Assembly: GCA_963719505.1 (NCBI GenBank)
Contig: CAVRCF010000001.1
Coordinates: forward strand, 352,001-416,000
Length of the DNA stretch: 64,000 nt
DNA from: Halobacteriovoraceae bacterium
GTDB taxonomy: Bacteria > Bdellovibrionota > Bacteriovoracia > Bacteriovoracales > Bacteriovoracaceae
Direction: 5' to 3'
The position numbers and the translations under genes were made by a program. Positions 40,072 through 52,707 of this stretch are shown one piece after another (the first letter of the stretch is position 1; each line of letters begins with the position of its first letter). Below the pieces are notes generated by a model, which ran no database searches, was not told the origin of the DNA, and saw only the letters and a list, made by a program, of their open reading frames with translations.

Positions 40072-43000
40072 CTAACATGGGTCTATTTGCTGTGCAATAT
40101 AATTCGTGAATTCAAGCAGTGTTTCGGGCTTTACGGAATCTTTGAAAGAACAGTTGACTGAAAAATTCGGATTTAGTTTATAGACCTTTGGCCTTTCCAT
40201 AAAAAATTGAATAACTTTGTTGCGCAGAGTCACATCTTCTGCAATTTCCAGCTGATTAAAATTGAGAATGATTGATTTAGACAGCACTTTTATACTATCT
40301 AGTGCGAGGTGTTGTAAATTGATACGAGATTTGAGGATCAAATATAGGTTTTGCGCCTCTTGAGGAGAGAGACCAAATTGATCTTCAATTTCTTCAATAA
40401 TTTCATCGAGTAGATCGTGAGATTTACAATTAGATAGACGCTTATAATACTTTAATCTCAGCCCGGTATCTTCGATAAATTTGTTTGGTAAAAAAGAAGG
40501 AAAGGGTGTTTGAATTTCAATCGATCGGCTGTGATTAACAGGCTGCCCTTTTAATTCCTCAATAGATTCTTGAAGGAGCTCCATATATAGTTCTAAACCA
40601 ATATTTGCGATATGACCTGATTGCTCAGCTCCTAGTATATCCCCGCTTCCTCTAATTTCTAAATCTGAGGTTGCTAGCGAAAAACCAGAACCCATATCTG
40701 CATAGGTCTGAAGAGCTTTAAGTCTCTTTGTTGCTATGTCGGAGAGGTTCCTATTCGACGGCACTAGAAAGTAAGCATAAGCTTTTCTATCAGAGCGGCC
40801 GATTCTCCCTCTTAATTGATGAAGTTGAGAAAGTCCAAAGGTATCGGCCCGATCGATGATCATCGTATTAGCAGCTGGGATATCAATTCCAGATTCGATA
40901 ATCGTTGTCGAAATTAAAATATCGAATTTATGTTCATAGAAATCTTTTATTCTTTTTTCTAGCTCCCTCTCAGGCATCTGACCATGCGCCACAACCAAGG
41001 AGGCGTCGGGAACTAATTTTTTAATGGATGCTGCATACTCTTCAATGTCATTAACCTTATTGTGAACGATAAAAATCTGTCCACCTCTAGACAATTCTTT
41101 TTCAATGGCATCTCTAACAGTTTTACCGTCATCCTTGATAATATAGGTCTTTATAGACTGCCTCTTAAGGGGCGCTGTTCTTATTAATGAGAGTTCTCTG
41201 ATTCCGAGAAATGACATTTGTAGTGTTCTTGGAATTGGAGTGGCCGTCATAACAAGATTATCTACAGTAGCCTTTAGTAACTTTAGTTTCTCTTTATGAG
41301 CAACACCAAACCTCTGTTCTTCATCGATAATAATTAAACCGAGATCTTTGTACTTTATTTTATCTGAGAGAAGTTTATGAGTTCCAATTAATATATCTAC
41401 TGTTCCTTGCTCTACTCTTTGCAGGATTTCTTTAACTTGGGAAGCTGACTTAAACCGCGACACATACTCAATATTGACGGCAAAGCCTTCAAAGCGCTTT
41501 ATAAAAGTGTTGTAGTGTTGATAAGCTAAAACTGTTGTTGGAACCAGGATCGAAACTTGCTTTTTATCGAGAACAGCTTTAAATGATGCCCTCATTGCAA
41601 CTTCAGTTTTTCCAAAACCAACATCACCACAAATAAGTCTATCCATTGGTGTTTCTTTTTGCATATCTTCGAGGACATCATCAATAGCTGATAGTTGATC
41701 GGGAGTTTCTTCAAACGGGAAATCCAACTCGAACTCTTTAAAGTGATGGTCAGGCTCAGAAAAAGCAAATCCTTTTCTGAGTTTTCGTTTGGCATTTAAT
41801 TCTAAAATATCAAATGCCAGTCTCTTAACTGAGCTTCTCGCTTTTGATTTAGCTAATTCGAATTTTTTTGTTTTAAGGCTATCAACTCTTTGCTCAGTAA
41901 TTTGATTGGCATGTTTTTGAATTAAGTTCAGCTTGTAAACGGGCAGGTAAACTTTATCATTATCTTTGTATTCGATGATAATAAAATCATTTTCTTGGTT
42001 GCCCATTTTTATATTTTCCATACCTAAATACTTACCAACACCATGAACCTTATGAATGAGGTAATCACCAATTTTTAGTGTTGACAGCTGTTCAGCAAAA
42101 AGGTCTTCAGTATTTAGTTTTTTAGATTTTCGCGTTTTCTTAATCTTTTCTGCGAAAAGATCAGACTCCGAAAGAAAGAATGTGTTTTCATTTTTGTAAT
42201 AAAATCCAGACGTGAGGGAAATTTGAAAATATTCAATCTTAGATTTTAGCTCTTTGCTAGAAATATTCTCTGAGATTAAAAATTCCAATTCCTTTCTAGA
42301 GCTATCATTTCTATAAAGAATATACAGTTTGCCTGAAGCACCTAATTTAGACTCAATTGCTTTTATGAGCTGATGGAGGTACTCATATTTATTTTTGGGC
42401 TCAACTTGAGAATATTTCTTTAAGAAAACCTTTGTTGATTCAAAATGAAGATTCAAAGAATTATCTAAGTTGTCACCCAGGTCAATATTGAGTGATATCT
42501 CGTCAATATTAAACTCCTTAAAATCTTTCTGCAATAACGAGTTGAAATGGTAAATCTGTTCAGGTTGAGGAAAGACTTCATCATCACTTGGATCTTCAAC
42601 TGACCTTTTAACTGATTCATAAAAGTTAGCTTCGCTTTCATTAAACTGATTTTCTGAGGTATCTTTTTCAAAAAAATGAAGCTTATAACTTGGAGTTAAA
42701 AAATCAGTTAAAAGCAAGTTCGTTTCAAAAAAAAGAGGAAAAAACAGCGGATAATTCTCAAACAACATTCCCTGAGATAATTTTTCAAAAATTTCATTTT
42801 TATTCTTATTCTTTAACTTTTGTGTTGGCGAATACTTTGGAAGTTTTGATCTAAGTGATAACACAGAATCTGGAGAGATAATCCCTTGGGGGGATTGTGC
42901 AATCGATACCGTTTGAACAGGTTGGTCCTTTAAGGTTTTGAGGTTATCTTTATCAATTTTGTATATTTCCTCAATCATATCGTCGAAATATAAAAGGCGA

Positions 43001-43557
43001 ATTGGATCACCGTCCAAAGGAAAGATGTCAAAGATCTCTCCTTTTTTAGAAAAGACCCCAGGCTCTTCAACTGTTGGTGATTTACTATAGCCAAAAGAGC
43101 CAAGTTTTAACGCCAGATCATCTGGGGAAATAATGTCTGAGACTTCTATCTTAAAGGAGTTTAAAAAATGCTCTTTTGGAGGTAGCTTTAGGTGCATTGC
43201 AGAATAAGTTGTAATGATAACTCTTTTTCTCTCCGGATGAGATACCAAAGCTTGCAATGTGAGCTGCCTTTTGTAGAGTGCTGCTTCAGACTGAATAATT
43301 GACGAAAACGGATTATCAGTAAGACCTGGAAAAAAAAGGATCTCTTTTTTGTATTGCTTTAAGGTCTCATATGCCTTTTCAGCTTGCTCCTCTGTTCGAA
43401 AGATAAAAACATCTGAATTTTGAAAATTTGTCTCTTTCTTAAAGAAATTAAAATAAATAAAGCTCCAAGTAGAAAAATCAACACCAGACAGTTTTACTAC
43501 GCTATTTTTATCAAAAATAGTTTTTATGTTTTTTACAATACTCGAAAAGTCGGACAT
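40072..43557 (-). CDS. mfd: Transcription-repair coupling factor
   Basis: HKVHGVG (RID), GDVGFGKT, DEEQRFG, TATPIPRT, QLRGRIGR, DLEIRGSG. Confidence 0.97.
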   Translation of the reverse strand: MSDFSSIVKNIKTIFDKNSVVKLSGVDFSTWSFIYFNFFKKETNFQNSDVFIFRTEEQAEKAYETLKQYKKEILFFPGLTDNPFSSIIQSEAALYKRQLTLQALVSHPERKRVIITTYSAMHLKLPPKEHFLNSFKIEVSDIISPDDLALKLGSFGYSKSPTVEEPGVFSKKGEIFDIFPLDGDPIRLLYFDDMIEEIYKIDKDNLKTLKDQPVQTVSIAQSPQGIISPDSVLSLRSKLPKYSPTQKLKNKNKNEIFEKLSQGMLFENYPLFFPLFFETNLLLTDFLTPSYKLHFFEKDTSENQFNESEANFYESVKRSVEDPSDDEVFPQPEQIYHFNSLLQKDFKEFNIDEISLNIDLGDNLDNSLNLHFESTKVFLKKYSQVEPKNKYEYLHQLIKAIESKLGASGKLYILYRNDSSRKELEFLISENISSKELKSKIEYFQISLTSGFYYKNENTFFLSESDLFAEKIKKTRKSKKLNTEDLFAEQLSTLKIGDYLIHKVHGVGKYLGMENIKMGNQENDFIIIEYKDNDKVYLPVYKLNLIQKHANQITEQRVDSLKTKKFELAKSKARSSVKRLAFDILELNAKRKLRKGFAFSEPDHHFKEFELDFPFEETPDQLSAIDDVLEDMQKETPMDRLICGDVGFGKTEVAMRASFKAVLDKKQVSILVPTTVLAYQHYNTFIKRFEGFAVNIEYVSRFKSASQVKEILQRVEQGTVDILIGTHKLLSDKIKYKDLGLIIIDEEQRFGVAHKEKLKLLKATVDNLVMTATPIPRTLQMSFLGIRELSLIRTAPLKRQSIKTYIIKDDGKTVRDAIEKELSRGGQIFIVHNKVNDIEEYAASIKKLVPDASLVVAHGQMPERELEKRIKDFYEHKFDILISTTIIESGIDIPAANTMIIDRADTFGLSQLHQLRGRIGRSDRKAYAYFLVPSNRNLSDIATKRLKALQTYADMGSGFSLATSDLEIRGSGDILGAEQSGHIANIGLELYMELLQESIEELKGQPVNHSRSIEIQTPFPSFLPNKFIEDTGLRLKYYKRLSNCKSHDLLDEIIEEIEDQFGLSPQEAQNLYLILKSRINLQHLALDSIKVLSKSIILNFNQLEIAEDVTLRNKVIQFFMERPKVYKLNPNFSVNCSFKDSVKPETLLEFTNYIAQQIDPC

Positions 43558-43644: not shown

Positions 43645-43917
43645 ATGGATGTTAAGCTTTACATTTTCAATGCACTTATTTATCTCATTGTGCCAGCGGG
43701 ATTCTTCTGTCTATTCTTTAGACCCAATAAAGACAAAAACTTGTCTTTTCGTCTTCAGTTTTTAAAAACCAAAAGACCGGATCAATCTAAAATAATATCT
43801 GTCATAGGACTGGTTATTTTGACTTGCCTTATATTGATCTATAGAGCTGATCTCATTTTTCTGATGTCGACAATTCTTCTTTTGTTGCTCCTTTTTAGAA
43901 AAAGATTTATCAAATGA
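43645..43917 (+). CDS. Three-TM protein, highly diverged NuoA-like
   Basis: TM1 followed by RPNKDKNLSF loop (cf. NuoA RPxxxKxxxYE), then two TMs. Confidence 0.5.
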   Translation: MDVKLYIFNALIYLIVPAGFFCLFFRPNKDKNLSFRLQFLKTKRPDQSKIISVIGLVILTCLILIYRADLIFLMSTILLLLLLFRKRFIK

Positions 43918-44732
43918 TTGAAATACTAAAAATGTCATTGATACAAGTAAGTGGGGCATTTATGGGTATGCTCCTTATTGCCATCAGCGGATATGTTGAA
44001 ACCTTTAAGATTTCTAGAGGGGTCTTCAATTTAATTAAATACTTTAAATTGACGAGTAGAAAAATAACAGTCTCCAGCTTTAAAAATAAAATGCCAGCAA
44101 ACTCTTATCTCATTAAGTTTTTATTATATATTCTCTTTTCCTTTTTTATTTTTAATACAACGACTTCAAATATTGAAATGCAAAGATACACTTTTTTGAT
44201 CTTAACCGTTTTATATTTCATTTTTGATGTCACGCTTTACTTGGAAGACAGTACACCCAATAAGAGTATAGAAGGTTATTTAGCAAGAAAATCAATTTTG
44301 ATGGTTCTGATTCTGAGTAGTTCTATATTCTCTTTATACCTTCTTGAAAAAGTCCCGGCGGGGAGTATTTATATTATTGCTTTAAAAATAGTAATCTTCC
44401 TCAATACCACTGGCCTAATCTATCTCTACGATTTTTTGTCCGAAAAATCATCTGAAGAAGTCTTGAATGCATTCCTTAGAAAAATTCTTTTTTACTTCCT
44501 CTTAATGAGTTTGTTCGTTTCATTAAACTCTTTTGGTTCGAGTGCTCAGTCATTGATTAAATACGGCTACTTTAGCGTGAGCATTGTCCTTGTAGAGTTC
44601 ATGGCAACATATGTAAAAACGAACCTAGGCTTCGTAAAGATAAATAGTGCCCTGAACCTTCTGGTTGATAACTTACTCGTTTATTTAATTATTTTTTGCG
44701 TTGTCATCGCGGGGTTAATCTATGTTGTTTAA
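43914..44732 (+). CDS. Multi-TM protein, highly diverged NuoH-like
   Basis: GYVETFKI ~ YxERKV; FKLTSRK ~ LKLLxKE; YVKTNLGFVKINSALNL ~ WVRATLPRxRYDQLMNL. Confidence 0.55.
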   Translation: MIEILKMSLIQVSGAFMGMLLIAISGYVETFKISRGVFNLIKYFKLTSRKITVSSFKNKMPANSYLIKFLLYILFSFFIFNTTTSNIEMQRYTFLILTVLYFIFDVTLYLEDSTPNKSIEGYLARKSILMVLILSSSIFSLYLLEKVPAGSIYIIALKIVIFLNTTGLIYLYDFLSEKSSEEVLNAFLRKILFYFLLMSLFVSLNSFGSSAQSLIKYGYFSVSIVLVEFMATYVKTNLGFVKINSALNLLVDNLLVYLIIFCVVIAGLIYVV

Positions 44733-45144
44733 TATCTCAATATTGATAGCTATCGTTTTATGTGTATGGTCACTTTATACGAAAAAATATTTTTACGACT
44801 ATCTTTTAGCCATCGTTATGACGACTGTCTTTGCTTACCTTATGGCACAAAGAGTTTCACTTTTGGGAACAAGCTTAATTACATTTTTAGCGTTTATGAG
44901 TTTAGTGCTCTTGATGAGTAATTTTCTAGCCACATCGGAAAAAATTAAACGAAGAATTTATAAATCTTATTGGGGAAAAGTATTTATTTCTATGGTCTTT
45001 GGAGCTGGGATTGTTTTTACTTTCAAAAAAATAGCTCTGCCAAATCTCACCTTTAATAGAATTGAGTTTACCGAGGACTATTACCTTCTCATTGTTGTTT
45101 TTTTAATATCGATAAGTTTAAAGAAACAGAAGGAAGAAAAATGA
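44722..45144 (+). CDS. Membrane protein, diverged NuoJ-like
   Basis: About 5 TMs, SLYTKK loop after TM1, FTEDYYLL ~ LFTxYLLP; gene order. Confidence 0.5.
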   Translation: MLFNISILIAIVLCVWSLYTKKYFYDYLLAIVMTTVFAYLMAQRVSLLGTSLITFLAFMSLVLLMSNFLATSEKIKRRIYKSYWGKVFISMVFGAGIVFTFKKIALPNLTFNRIEFTEDYYLLIVVFLISISLKKQKEEK

Positions 45145-45392
45145 TATACTTCTCAATAATCTCTTTTATCTTGTCCGTTAGATACGTCTTTATTAGCTGG
45201 AATACCCCTGATAAACTTATTGGTGGATACTACTTAATTTTGGGTGGAGTGTCGTTAGTTGCAGCACATCCACGTATTTCCGACGAAAACATTATTCTCA
45301 CTGGTGTAGCTATTTGCTGTTCTGTATTGAGTCTTGGATTACTACTAGGAAAAATTGGAAAGCAGATGAAAAATGATGAGGAACTTATATGA
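45141..45392 (+). CDS. Three-TM protein, diverged NuoK-like
   Basis: 83 aa; VAICCSVLSLGLLL ~ VAAAEAAVGLAI; conserved Glu residues absent. Confidence 0.5.
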   Translation: MIYFSIISFILSVRYVFISWNTPDKLIGGYYLILGGVSLVAAHPRISDENIILTGVAICCSVLSLGLLLGKIGKQMKNDEELI

Positions 45393-46225
45393 TTCTCATC
45401 GCTTTTACTATTCAAATTATTCTTTTATTTTTCTTAAAAAGTCATAAGACTTTCTCGGTGATCGGTGTTGGGTTACTAATGTCTTTGATAAACTTCTTTG
45501 ATTTATTTTCACAGTATTCATTATTAAAGCTCTCGATAACTGCGAATATTATCTATATCATCATTATGATTATCTTTTTGATCCAACAGATAAATAAAAA
45601 AAATGTAAAAGCAAAAAACATCATCTTCTTTAGCTTTATATTTGCCACAATGAATACGTACATTATTGCTGTGAGTTTACTTCTTTCGCTAATCTTTAAT
45701 CAAGAAACAGGTTTAGATGACAGGCCAAAAACTTTAATAAAACTGCTTTGTGTTATTTTTATAGGGGACTACTTTTTTGGAGGGTGGAATATATCCTTTC
45801 TTATACCATTTCTTATTCTTGTAGGATTAGCTTTATCTCAACTTCGGCTATTTACTGCTAGCAGCTTTTCGTACTTTACTACGAGTGCCTTTATAACAGC
45901 TGCAGAAGGTGGACAATACTATACCTTTTCCCTAGTGGGCGCGGTTTTAGCTATCCTTATTTTGAGAGAATTTATTGCCAATAGAAAAGAGAAGATAGTC
46001 AGGAATGACTTTATAGATAAAGTCACTTTTAGTCTGTTGATAACTCCACAACTAAGAGTTAAGAGAGCTAATATTGTTGAGACACAGACACAGTCTTCTG
46101 AATCTACAGATATAGCTCAGTATAGAAATGATATTGTTAATAAAGAGGATATTCTTGATCTTTTGTTGGCTTTCTTGGCCGTCGGATCAATAACCTATCT
46201 GGGGGCAACTTATGGAAATATATAA
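45389..46225 (+). CDS. Membrane protein, shortened NuoL-like
   Basis: KLLCVIFIGDYF ~ KAFxVNRIGDxG; FIDKVTFSLLITP ~ YxDELYxxLIVxP. Confidence 0.5.
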   Translation: MILIAFTIQIILLFFLKSHKTFSVIGVGLLMSLINFFDLFSQYSLLKLSITANIIYIIIMIIFLIQQINKKNVKAKNIIFFSFIFATMNTYIIAVSLLLSLIFNQETGLDDRPKTLIKLLCVIFIGDYFFGGWNISFLIPFLILVGLALSQLRLFTASSFSYFTTSAFITAAEGGQYYTFSLVGAVLAILILREFIANRKEKIVRNDFIDKVTFSLLITPQLRVKRANIVETQTQSSESTDIAQYRNDIVNKEDILDLLLAFLAVGSITYLGATYGNI

Positions 46226-46838
46226 AGTACTCCTTGATTATTGGGGACTACTGGTTCCGCTTTCAACTCTGATATTTATAAAGAAAAATTTTTATAATAC
46301 TTTAAGTATCTTCCTTTTGAGTTTGATCTTAGTCTTTCCAAAAGATTTAAAAGAGTTTCAGATCTACATTGCCCTTTTTGTAGTTGCTTTGATTATTCCT
46401 AAAGAAAAAAGTAAACTTGATGAGACAATATCGAGATTTGTTTCAGCGATTTGCCTTGTTGCCTTTTTGATATTGAACTCAGAAGAAAGTTTAAAGATAG
46501 ACGAAATATACTTTCTGATTCTAGTCTCATCGATACTGTTATCGATTAAAGGGTTTAAAAGAAAGCTTCTGACAATAGCCAGTGTTTCTATGCCCATTGT
46601 GACTACCGTGCTGAGCATACCGACAAAGGTATTACTTGTGATCCCGTTCTTATTTCTCCCATTATTATTTGAACGACTGAGCAAAAAAGAGTTTAGTACC
46701 TATTGTTTAGGTTGTCTTATAAGCTTAGGAAGTTTCACATCCGAACCTATTCTTTCAACCTATGTGGGATTTGCGATACTATCAATATTTGTGGTTTCTC
46801 CAAACGGAGAAAAGGCTCTTTCCGAGGATGAGATATGA
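46212..46838 (+). CDS. Hydrophobic membrane protein at the NuoM position
   Basis: About 8 short TMs; NuoM assignment rests on gene order only. Confidence 0.4.
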   Translation: MEIYKVLLDYWGLLVPLSTLIFIKKNFYNTLSIFLLSLILVFPKDLKEFQIYIALFVVALIIPKEKSKLDETISRFVSAICLVAFLILNSEESLKIDEIYFLILVSSILLSIKGFKRKLLTIASVSMPIVTTVLSIPTKVLLVIPFLFLPLLFERLSKKEFSTYCLGCLISLGSFTSEPILSTYVGFAILSIFVVSPNGEKALSEDEI

Positions 46839-47950
46839 GCGCACTATCGATAATTGGTATTATTTCTGTCTTTTATGCTCTTTGCTCAGAAAAATTAAAC
46901 TTTCTAAAGGGTACACCTACTCGATGTATTATTTTCTTCGTATTTTTAGCTTTTACGGTGCAATCCTTTCTTTACACAAATATTTTACTATCACCTTTTG
47001 GGTTACTTGTTCTCATCACCCCCCTACTTTATGGCTTTTCAGTTCTCATAAAAGAACAAGATGATAGGCATGATATTTTTTATATATTAATTATGATGAT
47101 ATTAGTTCGAAATATTGAGTCTACGACTTTCTTCCTTTTCTTAATTATAGCGAAAGGTATTTTTGTAGCCTTTCAGACTGAAGGAAGAAAAGAAGAGCGT
47201 TTAAACTATATCAAAAATAGCCTTTCACAACTTTTTATAATGCTAGTAGCTTTTTTGGCCTATTTGTATCTCAATTCTAGAAATACTATCTATCTCATTC
47301 CACTACTATTATCACTATACTTCCATATGAAGTCGATTGGGCTAAGGGTCTCTCACAAGATGTTTGATGACAGGCCTGCAAATATTGCAAAGTCAATAAT
47401 ATCTACATTAATGATACCTTACCTCATTCTTTACAAGATCTCCGCTGTTGAGAATGGATTAAACTTTCTGGTTCTTGATGGAGCAAAGTACACTGTTTTT
47501 TCTTTCTTTATAAGTTTTTCACTTTATATAACTATTCGATATAGAAGTAATAGAGTTATCTATCCTATTTTATCTTCTCTATTACTGGGATATTTATACT
47601 TGAGTTCCGCCATCTCTTTTGAACTCATGGTAGCACTAGACCTCCTTTCATATTTTTGTATCTTTATCGCTAGAGGAATAAGTAATCCAAAGGTAAGAAA
47701 TATATTTAAGTCCCTTTTATTACTAACTCCAATGAGTCCATTTTTCTATTTGGTATTTAAAAAAATTGGGGATGCTGATCTTGGGCGTCTGGAACTTTTT
47801 GGAATTATGACTCTTTTAGTTTTATTTTACCTAAACGTTATTAGTATTAAAGAAAATCTATGGAAAAAAAATTCAAAAATATTACAAGCAAAGCTGTTGG
47901 CATGCTTCTTATCAATATTAGTGGTAGTATACATCTATGACACAATATAG
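46835..47950 (+). CDS. Multi-TM protein, diverged NuoN-like
   Basis: EGRKEERLNYI ~ RSxEAALKYF; LLLGYL ~ HAGYM; LTPMSPFF ~ GIPPxxGF. Confidence 0.5.
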   Translation: MSALSIIGIISVFYALCSEKLNFLKGTPTRCIIFFVFLAFTVQSFLYTNILLSPFGLLVLITPLLYGFSVLIKEQDDRHDIFYILIMMILVRNIESTTFFLFLIIAKGIFVAFQTEGRKEERLNYIKNSLSQLFIMLVAFLAYLYLNSRNTIYLIPLLLSLYFHMKSIGLRVSHKMFDDRPANIAKSIISTLMIPYLILYKISAVENGLNFLVLDGAKYTVFSFFISFSLYITIRYRSNRVIYPILSSLLLGYLYLSSAISFELMVALDLLSYFCIFIARGISNPKVRNIFKSLLLLTPMSPFFYLVFKKIGDADLGRLELFGIMTLLVLFYLNVISIKENLWKKNSKILQAKLLACFLSILVVVYIYDTI

Positions 47951-50900
47951 AGTTAGACTCCAAAATGACCGAGTTATTGGACCTCTAAACCTAGAGGATC
48001 TAATTGAACTAAAAAAAGCCGGTAAGATTGACGGAAGTGAAGAAGTTCAAATTTTTCCAACTGGCGATTGGAAAAAGATGAGTTCTTTCCCCGAGCTTTC
48101 AACACTATCAAATGTCCTCGAAAATGATGACGATGCTGCAACATTTATAAGAAAGATAAACTTAGAAGAACTCAAAGAAGAAGCTGACCAAACGCAGCAG
48201 TTTCCAAAAAAGTTTGAATATGAAAAAAAGACTCCCTTCTCTAGTAAGTCAGAAAAGGTTGAAAAAGAAGATGAAACGATTGTCCCAGAGAAAAAGGATG
48301 AAGTTGAAATTCCAGATGCAACTGTCATAAAGAAAGTCGCTAAGCCAGCTGAGCCTCAAGATGATGATAAAACAAAAATAAATACGAATACATTGAAGTA
48401 TCTTGAAGAGTTAAAGAAAGCCAAGGAAAAAGAGCTTGAGGAAGAAGCACTGGCTGTAGAGCCTGAGCCAGAAATTGACCTAGATTCTGATGCGACACAA
48501 GTAATCTCATTAGATGCTCTGAAAGACCTAAAGCACTCGGAGAAGTCTTCAGAAAAAGAGTTTGCAAAGGAAAAAGCAGACTTTCTCAAAGAGAAAAAAG
48601 AGATTGAGAAAAAAATAAAAGAATCTGTCGTTGAGGAAGAAGAAGAGGACGAAGATAATGAGGATGATGCAAAAAAAGCAAAGAAAAAGAAACTTCTACT
48701 CATCTTTGTCGTTTTTCTAATAGCCTATGTTGTCTTATTTCCTGAAGAAGAAAAGAAATCTACCTTGAAGAAAATAGTTTTACAGGAACCAAGAATTGAA
48801 TTTCCTATACGATTCGATCAACCTGACAAGACTAAAGCCTCTATCCTTTATAAAGAGGGACTGATTTTAGAAAAAGAAGGAAGTTACTTATCAGAAATAA
48901 AAGCAGGAATTAAGTATAAGTTATCGGCGGAGAATCAATTTAATTCGAACCCTGCTCTGGCTCGTCTTATATTCCTCTACTCAAGCCATCTGGATAACTC
49001 TACAAATAAAAAGGAAGATGCAAATACGATTTTCAAATTGGTACAAATCTTTAGAACCAAAGCTCTGCAAGACCCCGATTTCACAGCCGCTGTTGCTTTG
49101 TTTTACATCCAGACAGAAAAATATGCAGCTGCTGTTAATACCGTAGAAAAATATAACGCCATTAAAAAGAGTAACCCCACTGTTGAGCTCTTTGCGGTCT
49201 ACCTGGAAGCGCTTCTAAAAATTGGAGATCTCGTTAAGGCAAAGGCTGTTGCAACTAAAATAGAAACAGTACCAATGAAGGACAGGTCGATATACGTTCA
49301 CCTCTCTCTCATCAATTATTATAGCCTAATTGGTAATTTTGAACGTCCTTCTGAAATTATAGCTGAAGCAAGAAAGATATTTAAAAGATCAATTCCTATA
49401 AACTTAGAAAGAGCGAGACTTCTTTTTTACAAAGAAGATTTCGAATCTTTAAAAAAGCTTTTAAGACAGTTACGAACAGTTAATCTTGGAAAGTCTAGAG
49501 TTCACTATGCTAAATACCTAGAATATATGGGACTGGTTGCAGCGAAAGAAGGTGATGAAAAGAAGGCTGAGTACTATTTTGATAAAGCTTTAAAGACTCA
49601 TGAGTCTTTAGAGTTAAGGTCACGCCTAGCCGAACTCTTTGTTCCGGGGGCTGCAGATCAAAACAGTATGGTCGCAGAAAGTAAGGCCATTCAATTAATT
49701 GCAAACTCAAAAATTCAAGCTAAAAAAGGAAACTGGAAATTTGCTTTTAAGGATGCTCTTGAGGCAAATAGAATTGCGTCTAACTTTATTCCGGCCAAAA
49801 TATATTTAGCCAAATTACAAATAGATCAGAGTATCTTTAAAGAAGCGATTGAAACACTTGAAGAGCTTTATAAAAATAATTCAAGAAATCCTGAAATAGT
49901 ATTTACGCTAATTGATGCTTATATAGAGTCTTACAAGTTTACTGATGTACAAAGGCTTCTGACGATTTTAAATACTTCGGAGATGAGAAATAGACCGGAG
50001 TACACCTCTTTGACGGCTAAGTATTATATCTACAAAGAGGATTTTGCTAGTTCAGTCGCCTGGCTTCAACGTGCGATAAATAAAGACCCTTTAAATGATC
50101 AAAATCAATTTGAACTTGCTAAAATGTTTATTCGTTACAATAAGTTTAACCGTGCAAAAACTCGTTTGAATAAGGCGATGGATCTGGATCCTGCGAACAC
50201 CGACTACCGTGTTGCTTATTCAAAAATTCTTTACGAAGTCGATGGTGCCTCTTTTGCGATTGGATATCTTTATGATGTTCTCCAAGACTTCCCTGATAAC
50301 GGCAAGATTTTAAGTCAAATCGGTATTTCATATTATAGAAGTGGGCAGATAAAAAGCTTTGAAGGTATTAAGGAGAAGCTGCAATCTATACCAAATAAGG
50401 ACACGACTCTTTATGAATTCTTAATTAAAGCTGCCGTGATCGACGGCAAGCCACAGGATCAAATAAAATATAGTCAAAAACTTATAGAGCTTAATCCAGG
50501 TGATCTAAAAACGAGATTGAATCTAGGTAAGATCTATATGCAACAAGAAAAGTATAAGAAAGCCTTGATAGAGTTTAAAGCAATTGAAGATCGGTTGGAA
50601 ACATATCCTATGCTACAGCTCTATATGGCAAATCTTTACGTCTTAACAGACAATCTGGATATGGCGACCGAGTTAGCGATGAAGGAGATAAAAGCCAATT
50701 CCTCGAGTGAACTTGGATATATTCTACTTGGTGATATTTATTCAAAAAAGAAAGATTATGTAGAGGCTGAAAACTATTATAAGAAAGCTCAAAAGATAAA
50801 CGGCGAGAACGTTGATATGCTTTTGGGACTGGCAAAGATAAACTTCAAAAAAAGCCAATATGACTTAACACTTGATCTTTTTCTAAAAGCTCGAGAAAAT

Positions 50901-51059
50901 GCTCCAGAAAGAGCAGAAATACATAAGCTATTGGGCGACGCTTATAGAAAAATGGGACAGAGTTCATTGGCCTTAGAGTCATATAAATTGTTTCTTGAGC
51001 TTTCACCAACGTCAAAGTATAAAGATGAAATAAGCACTTATATTCAAAAAATGCAGTGA
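47937..51059 (+). CDS. Bitopic membrane protein: N-terminal GYF_2-like domain, acidic linker, TM, long TPR array
   Basis: VIGPLNLEDLIELKKAGKI...WKK; poly-E/D then KKKK and a TM; many TPR repeats. Confidence 0.8.
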   Translation: MTQYRVRLQNDRVIGPLNLEDLIELKKAGKIDGSEEVQIFPTGDWKKMSSFPELSTLSNVLENDDDAATFIRKINLEELKEEADQTQQFPKKFEYEKKTPFSSKSEKVEKEDETIVPEKKDEVEIPDATVIKKVAKPAEPQDDDKTKINTNTLKYLEELKKAKEKELEEEALAVEPEPEIDLDSDATQVISLDALKDLKHSEKSSEKEFAKEKADFLKEKKEIEKKIKESVVEEEEEDEDNEDDAKKAKKKKLLLIFVVFLIAYVVLFPEEEKKSTLKKIVLQEPRIEFPIRFDQPDKTKASILYKEGLILEKEGSYLSEIKAGIKYKLSAENQFNSNPALARLIFLYSSHLDNSTNKKEDANTIFKLVQIFRTKALQDPDFTAAVALFYIQTEKYAAAVNTVEKYNAIKKSNPTVELFAVYLEALLKIGDLVKAKAVATKIETVPMKDRSIYVHLSLINYYSLIGNFERPSEIIAEARKIFKRSIPINLERARLLFYKEDFESLKKLLRQLRTVNLGKSRVHYAKYLEYMGLVAAKEGDEKKAEYYFDKALKTHESLELRSRLAELFVPGAADQNSMVAESKAIQLIANSKIQAKKGNWKFAFKDALEANRIASNFIPAKIYLAKLQIDQSIFKEAIETLEELYKNNSRNPEIVFTLIDAYIESYKFTDVQRLLTILNTSEMRNRPEYTSLTAKYYIYKEDFASSVAWLQRAINKDPLNDQNQFELAKMFIRYNKFNRAKTRLNKAMDLDPANTDYRVAYSKILYEVDGASFAIGYLYDVLQDFPDNGKILSQIGISYYRSGQIKSFEGIKEKLQSIPNKDTTLYEFLIKAAVIDGKPQDQIKYSQKLIELNPGDLKTRLNLGKIYMQQEKYKKALIEFKAIEDRLETYPMLQLYMANLYVLTDNLDMATELAMKEIKANSSSELGYILLGDIYSKKKDYVEAENYYKKAQKINGENVDMLLGLAKINFKKSQYDLTLDLFLKARENAPERAEIHKLLGDAYRKMGQSSLALESYKLFLELSPTSKYKDEISTYIQKMQ

Positions 51060-51065
51060 GGAAAT

Positions 51066-52358
51066 ATGCACGATATAAAACAAATCGAATCAAATTTAGA
51101 AGACTTCAAGAAAAACTTAAATAAAAGAGGGTTTGATCTGTCTGTCATCGATAGCGTCGTCGAGTTAAATTCACAAAGAAAGGCGCTCACTACTAATGTT
51201 GAAACGGCCCAAGCTCAAGTTAAAGCTAAATCAAAAGAAGTTGGATCTCTTATGAAAAGTGGAGATAAAGATGGTGCTGAAAAGATTAAAGCAGAAGTTA
51301 CAAATATTAAGTCTTCCATTGATGAAGATAATACAAAGCTTGGTGAAATAAAATCAACGCTAGAGTATCAACTTTCAACGATTCCCAATCTTATTTCCGA
51401 TGACACACCTATTGGGTCTGACGAAAGTGCAAATATTGAGGTCAATAGATGGGGAAAGCCCAGAGAATTTGACTTTAAGGTAAAGGACCATGCAGACCTT
51501 GGAGAAGAGCTGGGTATGCTTGATTTCGAAAAAGCTGCTGAGCTAACTGGTGCACGGTTTTGTGTCTATAAAGCTGATTTAGCTCGAATGGAAAGAGCTC
51601 TTGCAAACTTTATGTTAGATTTTCATTTGGAAAATGGTTACGAAGAAATTATTCCACCTTTTATTGTTAATGAAAAAACTCTCTATGGTACAGGCCAGCT
51701 TCCCAAATTTGGAGAAGACCTTTTCAAGTTAACTTTGGAAGATAAAAACTGGTATCTTATTCCAACATCAGAAGTACCTTTGACAAATCTTGCAGCCAAC
51801 GAGATATATAACGAAGAGCAACTTCCATTTAAGTATACAGCTTTTACACCTTGCTTTAGATCAGAAGCTGGTTCGCATGGAAGAGATACCAGAGGGCTTA
51901 TTAGAGTCCATCAATTTAACAAGGTAGAGATGGTTAACATAACTCATCCTGATCAATCTGATAAAACCTTGGACGAGATGGTAAAGTCTGCTGAGACAAT
52001 CTTAGAGAAGCTTAACCTACCCTTTAGAACAGTTAGACTTTGTACTGGAGACATAGGCTTTGGATCAAATAAGACATTTGATCTAGAAGTTTGGGTTCCT
52101 TCTCAAAAAACTTATAGAGAAATTTCATCATGTTCAAATTGTCATGACTTTCAAGCGCGCCGCGCTAGTATTCGATTTAAGAAGCAAGGCGAAAAACCTC
52201 AGTTTGCTCACACCTTAAATGGATCAGGACTAGCTGTTGGACGTACGATGGTTGCTATACTTGAGAACTTTCAAAATGAAGATGGGTCGATTACTATCCC
52301 CGAAGTTTTAAGACCATATATGGGTGGAAAAGAAAAAATTGTCCCTAAAAATAAATAA
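51066..52358 (+). CDS. serS: Serine--tRNA ligase
   Basis: LIPTSEVP, FRSEAG, RVHQFNKVE, EISSCSNC, HTLNGSGLA. Confidence 0.98.
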   Translation: MHDIKQIESNLEDFKKNLNKRGFDLSVIDSVVELNSQRKALTTNVETAQAQVKAKSKEVGSLMKSGDKDGAEKIKAEVTNIKSSIDEDNTKLGEIKSTLEYQLSTIPNLISDDTPIGSDESANIEVNRWGKPREFDFKVKDHADLGEELGMLDFEKAAELTGARFCVYKADLARMERALANFMLDFHLENGYEEIIPPFIVNEKTLYGTGQLPKFGEDLFKLTLEDKNWYLIPTSEVPLTNLAANEIYNEEQLPFKYTAFTPCFRSEAGSHGRDTRGLIRVHQFNKVEMVNITHPDQSDKTLDEMVKSAETILEKLNLPFRTVRLCTGDIGFGSNKTFDLEVWVPSQKTYREISSCSNCHDFQARRASIRFKKQGEKPQFAHTLNGSGLAVGRTMVAILENFQNEDGSITIPEVLRPYMGGKEKIVPKNK

Positions 52359-52674: not shown

Positions 52675-52707
52675 AAAAAACCGAGTTTCATAGCTCGGTT
52701 TTTTTTG
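52675..52707 (+). terminator. Intrinsic terminator after tRNA-Ser pair
   Basis: AAAAAACCGAG-TTTCATAG-CTCGGTTTTTTTT. Confidence 0.85.

Follow-up and report, generated by a model that had tools for sequence, protein, structure and literature searches.

Which machine is encoded by seven hydrophobic genes that no family model recognises and that stand in the order, and at the site, of a respiratory operon? The question is raised by a stretch of 64,000 nucleotides from a Halobacteriovoraceae bacterium (positions 352,001 to 416,000 of contig CAVRCF010000001.1, assembly GCA_963719505.1; hereafter the window), which carries at 43645-47950 on the + strand a compact array of seven intact hydrophobic open reading frames (ORFs). 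An initial annotation, made from the letters alone, had read the array as an extremely diverged operon for the membrane arm of complex I, nuoA-H-J-K-L-M-N, without hydrophilic subunits. Our analysis indicates that the array is likely the membrane arm (A′–N′) of a degenerate second, paralogous complex I. The host genome (G000) comprises 3.69 Mb in 5 contigs and is 83.5% complete.

Architecture of the array

The lengths and coordinates of the seven uninterrupted, overlapping frames agree with those first reported. Each frame starts with ATG, neighbouring genes share 4, 11, 4, 4, 14 and 4 nt (in the order of genes 1–7) and the end of gene 7 overlaps the start of the following gene, which encodes a tetratricopeptide repeat (TPR) protein, by 14 nt. 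The seven products have grand averages of hydropathy of 0.80–0.94. The genes, with the grounds for their assignment, are as follows.

43645..43917, + strand: gene 1, NuoA-like, 90 aa, 3 hydrophobic segments (position; weak profile link)
43914..44732, + strand: gene 2, NuoH-like, 272 aa, 8 hydrophobic segments (position; weak profile link; atlas look-alike)
44722..45144, + strand: gene 3, NuoJ-like, 140 aa, 5 hydrophobic segments (transitive hhalign link)
45141..45392, + strand: gene 4, NuoK-like, 83 aa, 3 hydrophobic segments (transitive hhalign link)
45389..46225, + strand: gene 5, NuoL position, 278 aa, 8 segments against about 14 (position only)
46212..46838, + strand: gene 6, NuoM position, 208 aa, 7 segments against about 12 (position only)
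46835..47950, + strand: gene 7, NuoN-like, 371 aa, 12 segments (transitive hhalign link over 43 C-terminal columns)

The alternative forward frames contain 6–37 stops per gene and the G+C content of the stretch is 31–34%. Since stops are confined to the other two frames of a stretch with such a low G+C content, the array frames are far more open than chance allows.

The array occupies the slot of a canonical membrane-arm operon

The gene downstream of the array provided an anchor for comparing this locus across the family: 77 of the 80 other genomes of the family have it, and it consistently follows the nuo membrane operons. The approximately 55 N-terminal residues of its product are conserved across genera. 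The locus around the array has the following features.

40072..43557, − strand: divergent gene of 1161 aa, mfd by the naming of the initial annotation, left border of the conserved frame (ORF; same arrangement in G023 and G001)
47937..51059, + strand: TPR membrane protein, 1040 aa, synteny anchor (TPR families in Pfam)
51066..52358, + strand: serS, a name taken from the initial annotation (same position in the congener; last gene of the probable transcription unit)
52675..52704, + strand: strongest terminator-like hairpin on this strand between gene 1 and this point, located after serS (13-pair stem, then a T run; consensus match only)

We read the 7 kb upstream of the TPR gene in 40 family genomes which, together with the window and its congener G002, yields 42 genomes. 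The states found directly upstream of the TPR gene are listed below.

Diverged hydrophobic set: 35 of 42 genomes (33 with seven genes, 2 with five)
Well-conserved second set: 1 of 42 (G021)
Canonical set only: 3 of 42 (G023, G082 and G054)
Ambiguous: 2 of 42 (G011 and G062)
mfd directly beside the TPR gene, no array: 1 of 42 (G001, a congener of the window genome)

In most of the 35 genomes, the diverged set sits behind a canonical nuoN of about 490 aa. G023 has mfd, nuoA(144)-H(369)-J(190)-K(105)-L(732)-M(508)-N(487) and the TPR gene (lengths in aa), that is, a canonical operon in the window's own frame, which indicates that a membrane-arm-only operon is the normal layout in this family. The search for canonical nuo genes at this position in relatives, suggested in the initial annotation, thus had a positive outcome. 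The window array thus lies in the orthologous chromosomal slot of an A-H-J-K-L-M-N operon, and its gene count and order match those of 33 other seven-gene arrays in the TPR slot.

In congener G002 the array recurs, with products of 90/273/143/83/269/209/372 aa, and the TPR gene and serS again come next. SerS is 85% identical between the two genomes and the TPR protein 65%, against 16–28% for the seven array proteins. Genes 1, 2, 3 and 7 retain significant similarity to their counterparts in the congener (z 4.6–17), gene 2 reaching 26% identity with a z of 17.

Further loci depart from the common arrangement. G046 and G084 have five-gene second sets, in which A′, H′, J′ and K′ are joined by one protein of 400–459 aa directly before the TPR gene. 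The NuoL-position gene of G011 is spread over three ORFs (343, 133 and 179 aa), reflecting either a disruption or an assembly error in a genome that is 66% complete.

Homology of the array genes, position by position

To compare sets we distinguished group A (the window clade, 7 genomes with a short gene 5), group B (28 other second sets) and group C (canonical-like sets). The hhalign values for corresponding positions (the diagonal, in %) are listed below, NuoA in the comparison of B with C being not assessable with a single canonical sequence.

Gene 1 (NuoA): B against C, 0.2 (not assessable); A against B, 26.7
Gene 2 (NuoH): B against C, 99.8; A against B, 0.5
Gene 3 (NuoJ): B against C, 88.2; A against B, 95.1
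Gene 4 (NuoK): B against C, 96.5; A against B, 87.7
Gene 5 (NuoL): B against C, 93.8; A against B, 0.1
Gene 6 (NuoM): B against C, 99.1; A against B, 0.1
Gene 7 (NuoN): B against C, 99.6; A against B, 75.0

Between B and C, off-diagonal values for non-paralogues do not exceed 0.9%, and genes 5, 6 and 7 each match L, M and N best. Some second-set proteins also link directly to canonical subunits by phmmer (E<1e-5), and gene 7 of the second set of G068 passes the Pfam model PF00361 (35.1 versus 21.5 bits).

Between A and B, the 42 off-diagonal cells peak at 28.1%. The diagonal matches of gene 3 (E 2.9e-8, 103 columns), gene 4 (E 3.4e-6) and gene 7 (E 2.5e-5, over 43 C-terminal columns) stand well above it, and the congener's gene 4 was recruited by a NuoK hidden Markov model (HMM). 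Gene 1 matches its own position best of the seven, over 11 columns at residues 24–34. With genus-level profiles, genes 2 and 7 likewise have their own position as the top of seven among second sets (15.6% and 36.5%). The two genera within clade A match each other at gene 2 with only 1–7%, so that sequence tests have low power here. A language-model atlas returned a NuoH cluster as the best named look-alike of gene 2 (score 0.90, 201 of 256 features), which we treat as a lead only.

The window genes have 3/8/5/3/8/7/12 hydrophobic segments, compared with canonical medians of 2/6/5/3/14/12/13, and the three segments of gene 1 recur in all 7 clade A members. The L- and M-like genes had been described as about half the normal length; they measure 38% and 41% of the canonical medians (278 versus 732 aa and 208 versus 504.5 aa). 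This shrinkage is graded, gene 5 passing from a median of 732 aa in C to 485 in B and 217–296 in A, and gene 6 from 504 aa to 330 and 208–353.

Taken position by position, the nuoA-H-J-K-L-M-N identity proposed at the outset is upheld to different degrees. Synteny, helix counts and the transitive links support the assignment of genes 3, 4 and 7 as J′, K′ and N′; genes 1 and 2 are weakly supported as A′ and H′ by their profile links; genes 5 and 6 are assigned as L′ and M′ by position only. The strings that had been pointed out as motif remnants (RPNKDK, YVETFK, FTEDYYLL, LITP and EERLNYI) are indeed present. The RPNKDK stretch is the only one inside a profile-aligned block (gene 1, residues 24–34); the others are not demonstrably remnants because they are not conserved even within the window clade, whose alignments contain a single invariant column for gene 7 and none for gene 2.

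A reduced hydrophilic operon elsewhere in the genome

The sole Complex1_49kDa match of the host genome lies at G000:C1:1207071-1207511, outside the window, about 0.85 Mb away on the same contig. The claim that nuoB-G and nuoI are absent from the locus is therefore correct, and "without hydrophilic subunits" holds for the locus. It does not hold for the genome, where the match belongs to a degenerate four-gene operon at G000:C1:1204278-1208198 (the Q′ operon), in a family for which membrane-arm-only loci are normal. The search for nuoBCDI or nqr genes that had been suggested thus found both this operon, which contains the following genes, and an NqrA match.

G000:C1:1204278-1205801: putative lipoprotein, 507 aa (N-terminus resembling that of lipoproteins on visual inspection; without relatives in Pfam or the PDB)
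Q′ operon, second gene: NuoB′, 141 aa (Oxidored_q6, 18.3 bits, below the cut-off of 27)
Q′ operon, third gene: NuoCD′ fusion, 509 aa (NuoC, PF00329, 64.5 bits; NuoD, PF00346, 108.7 bits; both above cut-offs)
Q′ operon, fourth gene: NuoI′, 149 aa (2x[4Fe-4S], Fer4 families)

The NuoD′ match spans only positions 20–167 of the 271 of the profile. The best PDB matches of a CD′ profile are the NuoCD chains 7q5y_B and 7awt_D. CD′ is 42% identical to its congener counterpart and has 32 invariant columns in 14 sequences, and is thus far better conserved than the membrane genes. The lipoprotein, for which phmmer E values reach 6e-144, far exceeds the Nuo-like genes in conservation; it may act as an accessory subunit so far overlooked, or the operon may be retained because of it.

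Among the genomes examined, 11 others share this lipoprotein-headed operon. Where the second membrane set is well conserved, in G021 and G022, it reads lipoprotein-NuoB-NuoCD-three genes-NuoI, and Pfam identifies the three extra genes of G021 as NuoE, NuoF and NuoG. These three are not in the Q′ operon of the window genome and no Complex1_51K match was found in that genome, at its 83.5% completeness. The canonical (type 1) hydrophilic operon, as seen in G023 and G006, is NuoB-C-D-I. Phylogenetic analysis of NuoD groups the reduced CD′ proteins in a single clade (support of 96 in the Shimodaira–Hasegawa-like approximate likelihood-ratio test) that is nearer to type 2 than to type 1, with long branches as a caveat. 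The NqrA match (128 bits, in a 451-aa frame at G000:C1:1072773-1073054) is the one nqr gene on which we base the suggestion that NADH oxidation in the host is probably carried out by Na+-NQR.

Across the family, the membrane and hydrophilic arms decay together. Thirty-eight genomes have a set that either accompanies or replaces the canonical one; of these, 31 clearly encode a fused CD, 4 are ambiguous and 3 yielded no fused CD. Congener G001 has neither the array nor CD′: about 116 bp separate mfd from the TPR gene and no CD′ match was found in a genome that is 87% complete, as if both had been cleanly deleted in nature. When H′ was modelled in complex with B′, the D′ domain and I′, the score was 0.32, versus 0.00 for the best of 3 controls, with partner predicted local distance difference test (pLDDT) values of at least 64 and runs agreeing in at least 58% of contacts. 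In calibration, 58 of 80 solved complexes reached the mark, as did 2 of 110 mismatches, and a pass at or below 0.60 counts as weak. The prediction therefore lends weak support to an H′–B′–D′–I′ assembly and may reflect memory of solved complex I structures.

These data bear on which nuo copy the array descends from. It could be the canonical (type 1) operon itself, decayed in place: the array occupies the exact canonical slot beside mfd, as in G023, and the window genus has a single set, with no canonical set left to compare. We consider this unlikely. Genes 3, 4 and 7 match the second sets (95%, 88% and 75%) and not the canonical-like profiles (0.6%, 1.5% and 0.6%); the surviving hydrophilic partner is a type-2-derived fused CD′ behind a lipoprotein gene, with no type-1 NuoD match in the genome; and the shrinkage of genes 5–7 continues a trend seen in second sets that lie beside an intact canonical set.

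The array frames are probably under relaxed purifying selection

The uninterrupted frames had been proposed to reflect selection rather than simple decay. Nonsynonymous (dN) and synonymous (dS) divergence were compared in G012 and G091, a congeneric pair and the closest one with both canonical and second-set genes, which are genomes other than the window's. Canonical nuoN has a dN of 0.025 and a dS of 1.18 in this pair, and the seven second-set genes have dN values of 0.04–0.36, genes 5 and 6 being the fastest. The second-set genes of this pair are under relaxed but real purifying selection, in agreement with the proposal. Two more distant pairs yield dN values of 0.7–1.0 versus dS values of 1.2–3.4. 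Although most of the transmembrane charges that are invariant in canonical subunits have gone, the number of genes, their open frames and lengths, and the number of helices persist.

An improbable reading, in our judgement, is that the array is a functionless relic whose frames stay open only because disrupting them would have polar effects on the TPR gene, which is translationally coupled to the array, and on serS, while in-frame deletions shrink it. The seven array genes, the TPR gene and serS probably form one transcription unit, as judged from the sequence, because the only strong terminator-like hairpin on the + strand comes after serS; a promoter scan of the sequence gave 26 hits versus 31.4 expected, i.e., not above chance. 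This organization suits a relic, as does the overlap at every junction, including that between gene 7 and the TPR gene. So do the shuffled-level similarity of genes 4 and 6 between congeners at constant length, the progressive shrinkage of genes 5–7 across the family and the viability of G001 without the array. Polarity, however, does not demand that hydrophobicity and helix number be maintained, and does not account for second-set dN values far under dS (at least 1.18) in G012/G091 or for the significant similarity of genes 1, 2, 3 and 7 between congeners. The array is moreover found in 35 of 42 genomes though its clean deletion is evidently possible, and CD′, which is unlinked to the TPR gene, is well conserved.

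Residues for quinone reduction and ion pumping are apparently lost

Cofactor-site columns were defined against four intact references. The four columns of the N2-cluster cysteines read D/I/M/P in the NuoB′ of the window genome, and of the 12 reduced operons only those of G006 and G012 retain these cysteines, the other 10 having lost them. NuoD′ reads A/S/A where two His and one Tyr are conserved; these His/His/Tyr residues of NuoD have a role in quinone binding. NuoI′ has all 8 of its 8 ligand cysteines, in two CxxCxxCxxxCP motifs, and all eight are kept in 9 of the 12 reduced operons.

In the membrane arm, the glutamates of NuoK, which had been noted as apparently missing, are replaced: the window has V and L at their positions, and the two glutamates are kept in no group A set and in 1 and 2 of 28 group B sets. 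None of five invariant NuoN charge columns is kept in the window, compared with 4–9 of 26 group B sets that keep them, and the invariant charge columns of L and M appear mostly lost as in NuoN. These low-identity alignments point to a trend toward the loss of invariant transmembrane charges.

Could the complex still convert energy, either by taking electrons from a ferredoxin-like donor via the NuoI′ clusters or by translocating ions with non-canonical residues? The eight cluster cysteines of NuoI′, the 32 invariant columns of CD′ and the four N2 cysteines that persist in the reduced operons of G006 and G012 would suit such a machine. We regard it as quite unlikely, since in the window all four N2 ligands and the NuoD His/His/Tyr residues are replaced, the genome has no NuoF, the NuoK Glu columns and most invariant Lys, Glu, Asp and His residues of L, M and N are lost, and genes 5 and 6 have about half the helices.

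Observations that weigh against a complex I origin

Several results count against assigning the array to a second complex I, and we collect them here. The initial annotation had named a lack of profile or structural similarity to Nuo or Mrp subunits as one outcome that would speak against it and, taken strictly, this is what direct searches returned. The seven array proteins match no Nuo or Mrp family in Pfam or NCBIfam at E<=10. PDB profile searches with window-clade alignments of genes 2 and 7 gave 0 matches at E<=10. AlphaFold2 models were unusable (mean pLDDT of 46.9 for gene 7 from a 9-row alignment and of 46.2 for gene 2 from 7 rows), and Foldseek searches of the PDB with these two models, which are too poor to inform, had a best E >1. 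Comparison of groups A and C by hhalign gave no signal, the maximum of 7.2% being off the diagonal, and the clade profile of gene 2 matches second-set gene 2 with only 0.5%. Similarity of genes 5 and 6 is undetectable beyond close kin, by hhalign or by deep homology searches. Genes 4 and 6 are no more similar to the congener's than shuffled sequences are (z 0.2 and −0.7), so that their constraint within the window genus is seen only through kept frames, lengths and hydrophobicity. Synonymous divergence between the window and its congener is saturated, as it also is between G092 and G013, and the alignments at 15–25% identity from which individual residues were read are uncertain at that level.

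The coupling between the two arms also has exceptions. Eight genomes lack a second set at the TPR locus (four of them as judged from coordinates only), and 4 of these 8 still carry CD′ (G082, G054, G004 and G087). A NuoH′-profile search of these four revealed no displaced second set, with a profile insensitive enough to miss also the known set of G018; in all five genomes it returned only canonical-type NuoH genes. The NuoI′ cysteines are partly lost in G054 and G082, and in G004 CD′ alone was detected, on the longest branch. Erosion after the loss of a partner would fit this pattern, which is anecdotal. At G054:C6:46500-60500, the reduced lipoprotein-B′-CD′-I′ operon lies directly behind the nuoN of a third, contiguous nuo operon.

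Further searches delimit how far sequence similarity reaches. PF00361 (Proton_antipo_M) matched none of genes 5–7 at E<=10 and PF00146 (NADHdh) did not match gene 2; neither was found genome-wide in six frames, in searches whose controls were positive in 13 and 11 of 14 genomes, respectively. When the window proteins were compared by phmmer with all the sets collected, genes 2 and 7 of the congener were the only matches, iterative HMMs built from canonical subunits never recruited the window proteins, and a single-protein scan of the genome contigs found no relative. Deep homology searches yielded 5 non-self relatives for gene 2 and, among 5.8 billion proteins, 2 each for genes 5 and 7, none with a Pfam domain; the gene 6 alignment gathered 9 proteins at E<=0.001 among 1.84 billion representatives, with no bridge to NuoM. 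Profiles of genes 5 and 6 gave no hhalign signal against single second-set proteins (22 of 28 genomes for gene 6), and the ESM atlas held nothing usable for gene 5. Given the lack of direct similarity, homology rests on synteny and on intermediates.

We rejected an unrelated orphan membrane operon or a seven-gene Mrp-type antiporter replacing nuo at this site as most unlikely: no Nuo family is detected directly and Mrp operons also consist of seven hydrophobic, overlapping genes, but neither Proton_antipo_M nor any Mrp family appears in Pfam at E<=10, the position-specific profile links of genes 3, 4 and 7 and the NuoH look-alike of gene 2 favour Nuo, as do a gene count and order shared with the other seven-gene arrays of the slot, and the array lengths follow the A/H/J/K/L/M/N pattern and not Mrp subunit sizes.

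Discussion

We propose the following history for the degenerate second complex I. The family's canonical complex I is split between a nuoA-H-J-K-L-M-N operon, located between mfd and the TPR gene, and a nuoB-C-D-I operon elsewhere. A type 2 complex has its membrane-arm operon in tandem directly behind the canonical one and its hydrophilic operon, lipoprotein-NuoB-NuoCD(fused)-NuoE-F-G-NuoI, at another site, and would have decayed on both arms in most genera. In the window genus, the canonical complex would have been lost and only the decayed one kept, as the seven array genes and lipoprotein-NuoB′-NuoCD′-NuoI′. Their products probably still assemble as an L-shaped membrane complex with B′-CD′-I′, which would be unable to oxidise NADH or to reduce quinone via N2 and would probably not pump ions; NADH oxidation would be left to Na+-NQR. 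Retention under relaxed purifying selection would then serve a structural or scaffolding role outside bioenergetics, one in which the conserved lipoprotein or the co-transcribed TPR protein may take part.

A broader claim is that the whole family keeps an assembled "pseudo-complex I" by purifying selection, after the loss of the NADH module, N2, the quinone-site residues and the proton-channel charges, for a non-respiratory job such as an envelope or membrane scaffold with the lipoprotein and the TPR protein. We put this forward tentatively, as a possibility that we would not yet favour. If it is true, pseudo-complex I would be the sole complex-I-like machine left in the window genus.

The array can be set beside known systems. 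The Mrp (Mnh/Pha) antiporter, which is related to the membrane arm of complex I but carries out no redox chemistry, keeps charged transmembrane residues; it shares with the array seven overlapping hydrophobic genes and differs from it in subunit sizes, and no Mrp family was detected here. The 13/14-subunit NADH:quinone oxidoreductase with a fused NuoCD, exemplified by the type 2 complexes of G021 and G022, shares the C–D fusion, the B-CD-...-I order, the NuoI cysteines and the A-H-J-K-L-M-N order. In contrast, the window system has no NuoE, NuoF or NuoG, has lost the N2 ligands, the NuoD His/His/Tyr residues and the transmembrane charges, and has halved L′ and M′.

For Bdellovibrionota, a study describes a conserved chromosomal location of a nuoAHJKLMN cluster, the remaining nuo genes lying elsewhere (a "split arrangement"), and, in predatory taxa, another nuo system in which nuoC and nuoD are fused (PMC13147790). 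This cluster resembles the window array in being membrane-arm-only at a conserved site, the window frame being the canonical slot of G023; unlike that recognisable cluster, the window set shows no Pfam-level similarity, has genes 5 and 6 at about 40% length, has lost its charges and appears to descend from the tandem second copy. Marine actinomycetes carry an extra partial operon, nuoA-hyp-H-J-K-L-M-N, proposed to pump protons or aid salt tolerance (PMC6676996). Like the second sets, it is membrane-arm-only beside a complete complex I, with the same content and order; its genes are reported with annotations as recognisable Nuo subunits, whereas the window genes are unrecognisable, have lost the pumping residues and have their own degenerate Q-module. 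Within the portions of the literature accessible to us, which include PMC12361115 besides the two studies above, and supplementary gene tables aside, we found no description of a degenerate tandem nuo copy or of a cofactor-less B′-CD′-I′ operon.

The array amounts to about 4.3 kb of real, selected genes that Pfam, NCBIfam, PDB profiles and structure prediction all miss and that could be traced only via synteny and intermediates. Complex I is among the most conserved energy converters, and we know of no description of catalytically dead yet conserved versions of it. The family presents a graded series, from the intact, NADH-oxidising type 2 complex of G021 and G022 to the minimal form of the window, with steps in which the N-module is lost, then N2, then the channel charges, and in which the antiporter subunits are finally halved. 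Such a series could separate what complex I needs for assembly from what it needs for catalysis, and could show how its scaffold is reused.

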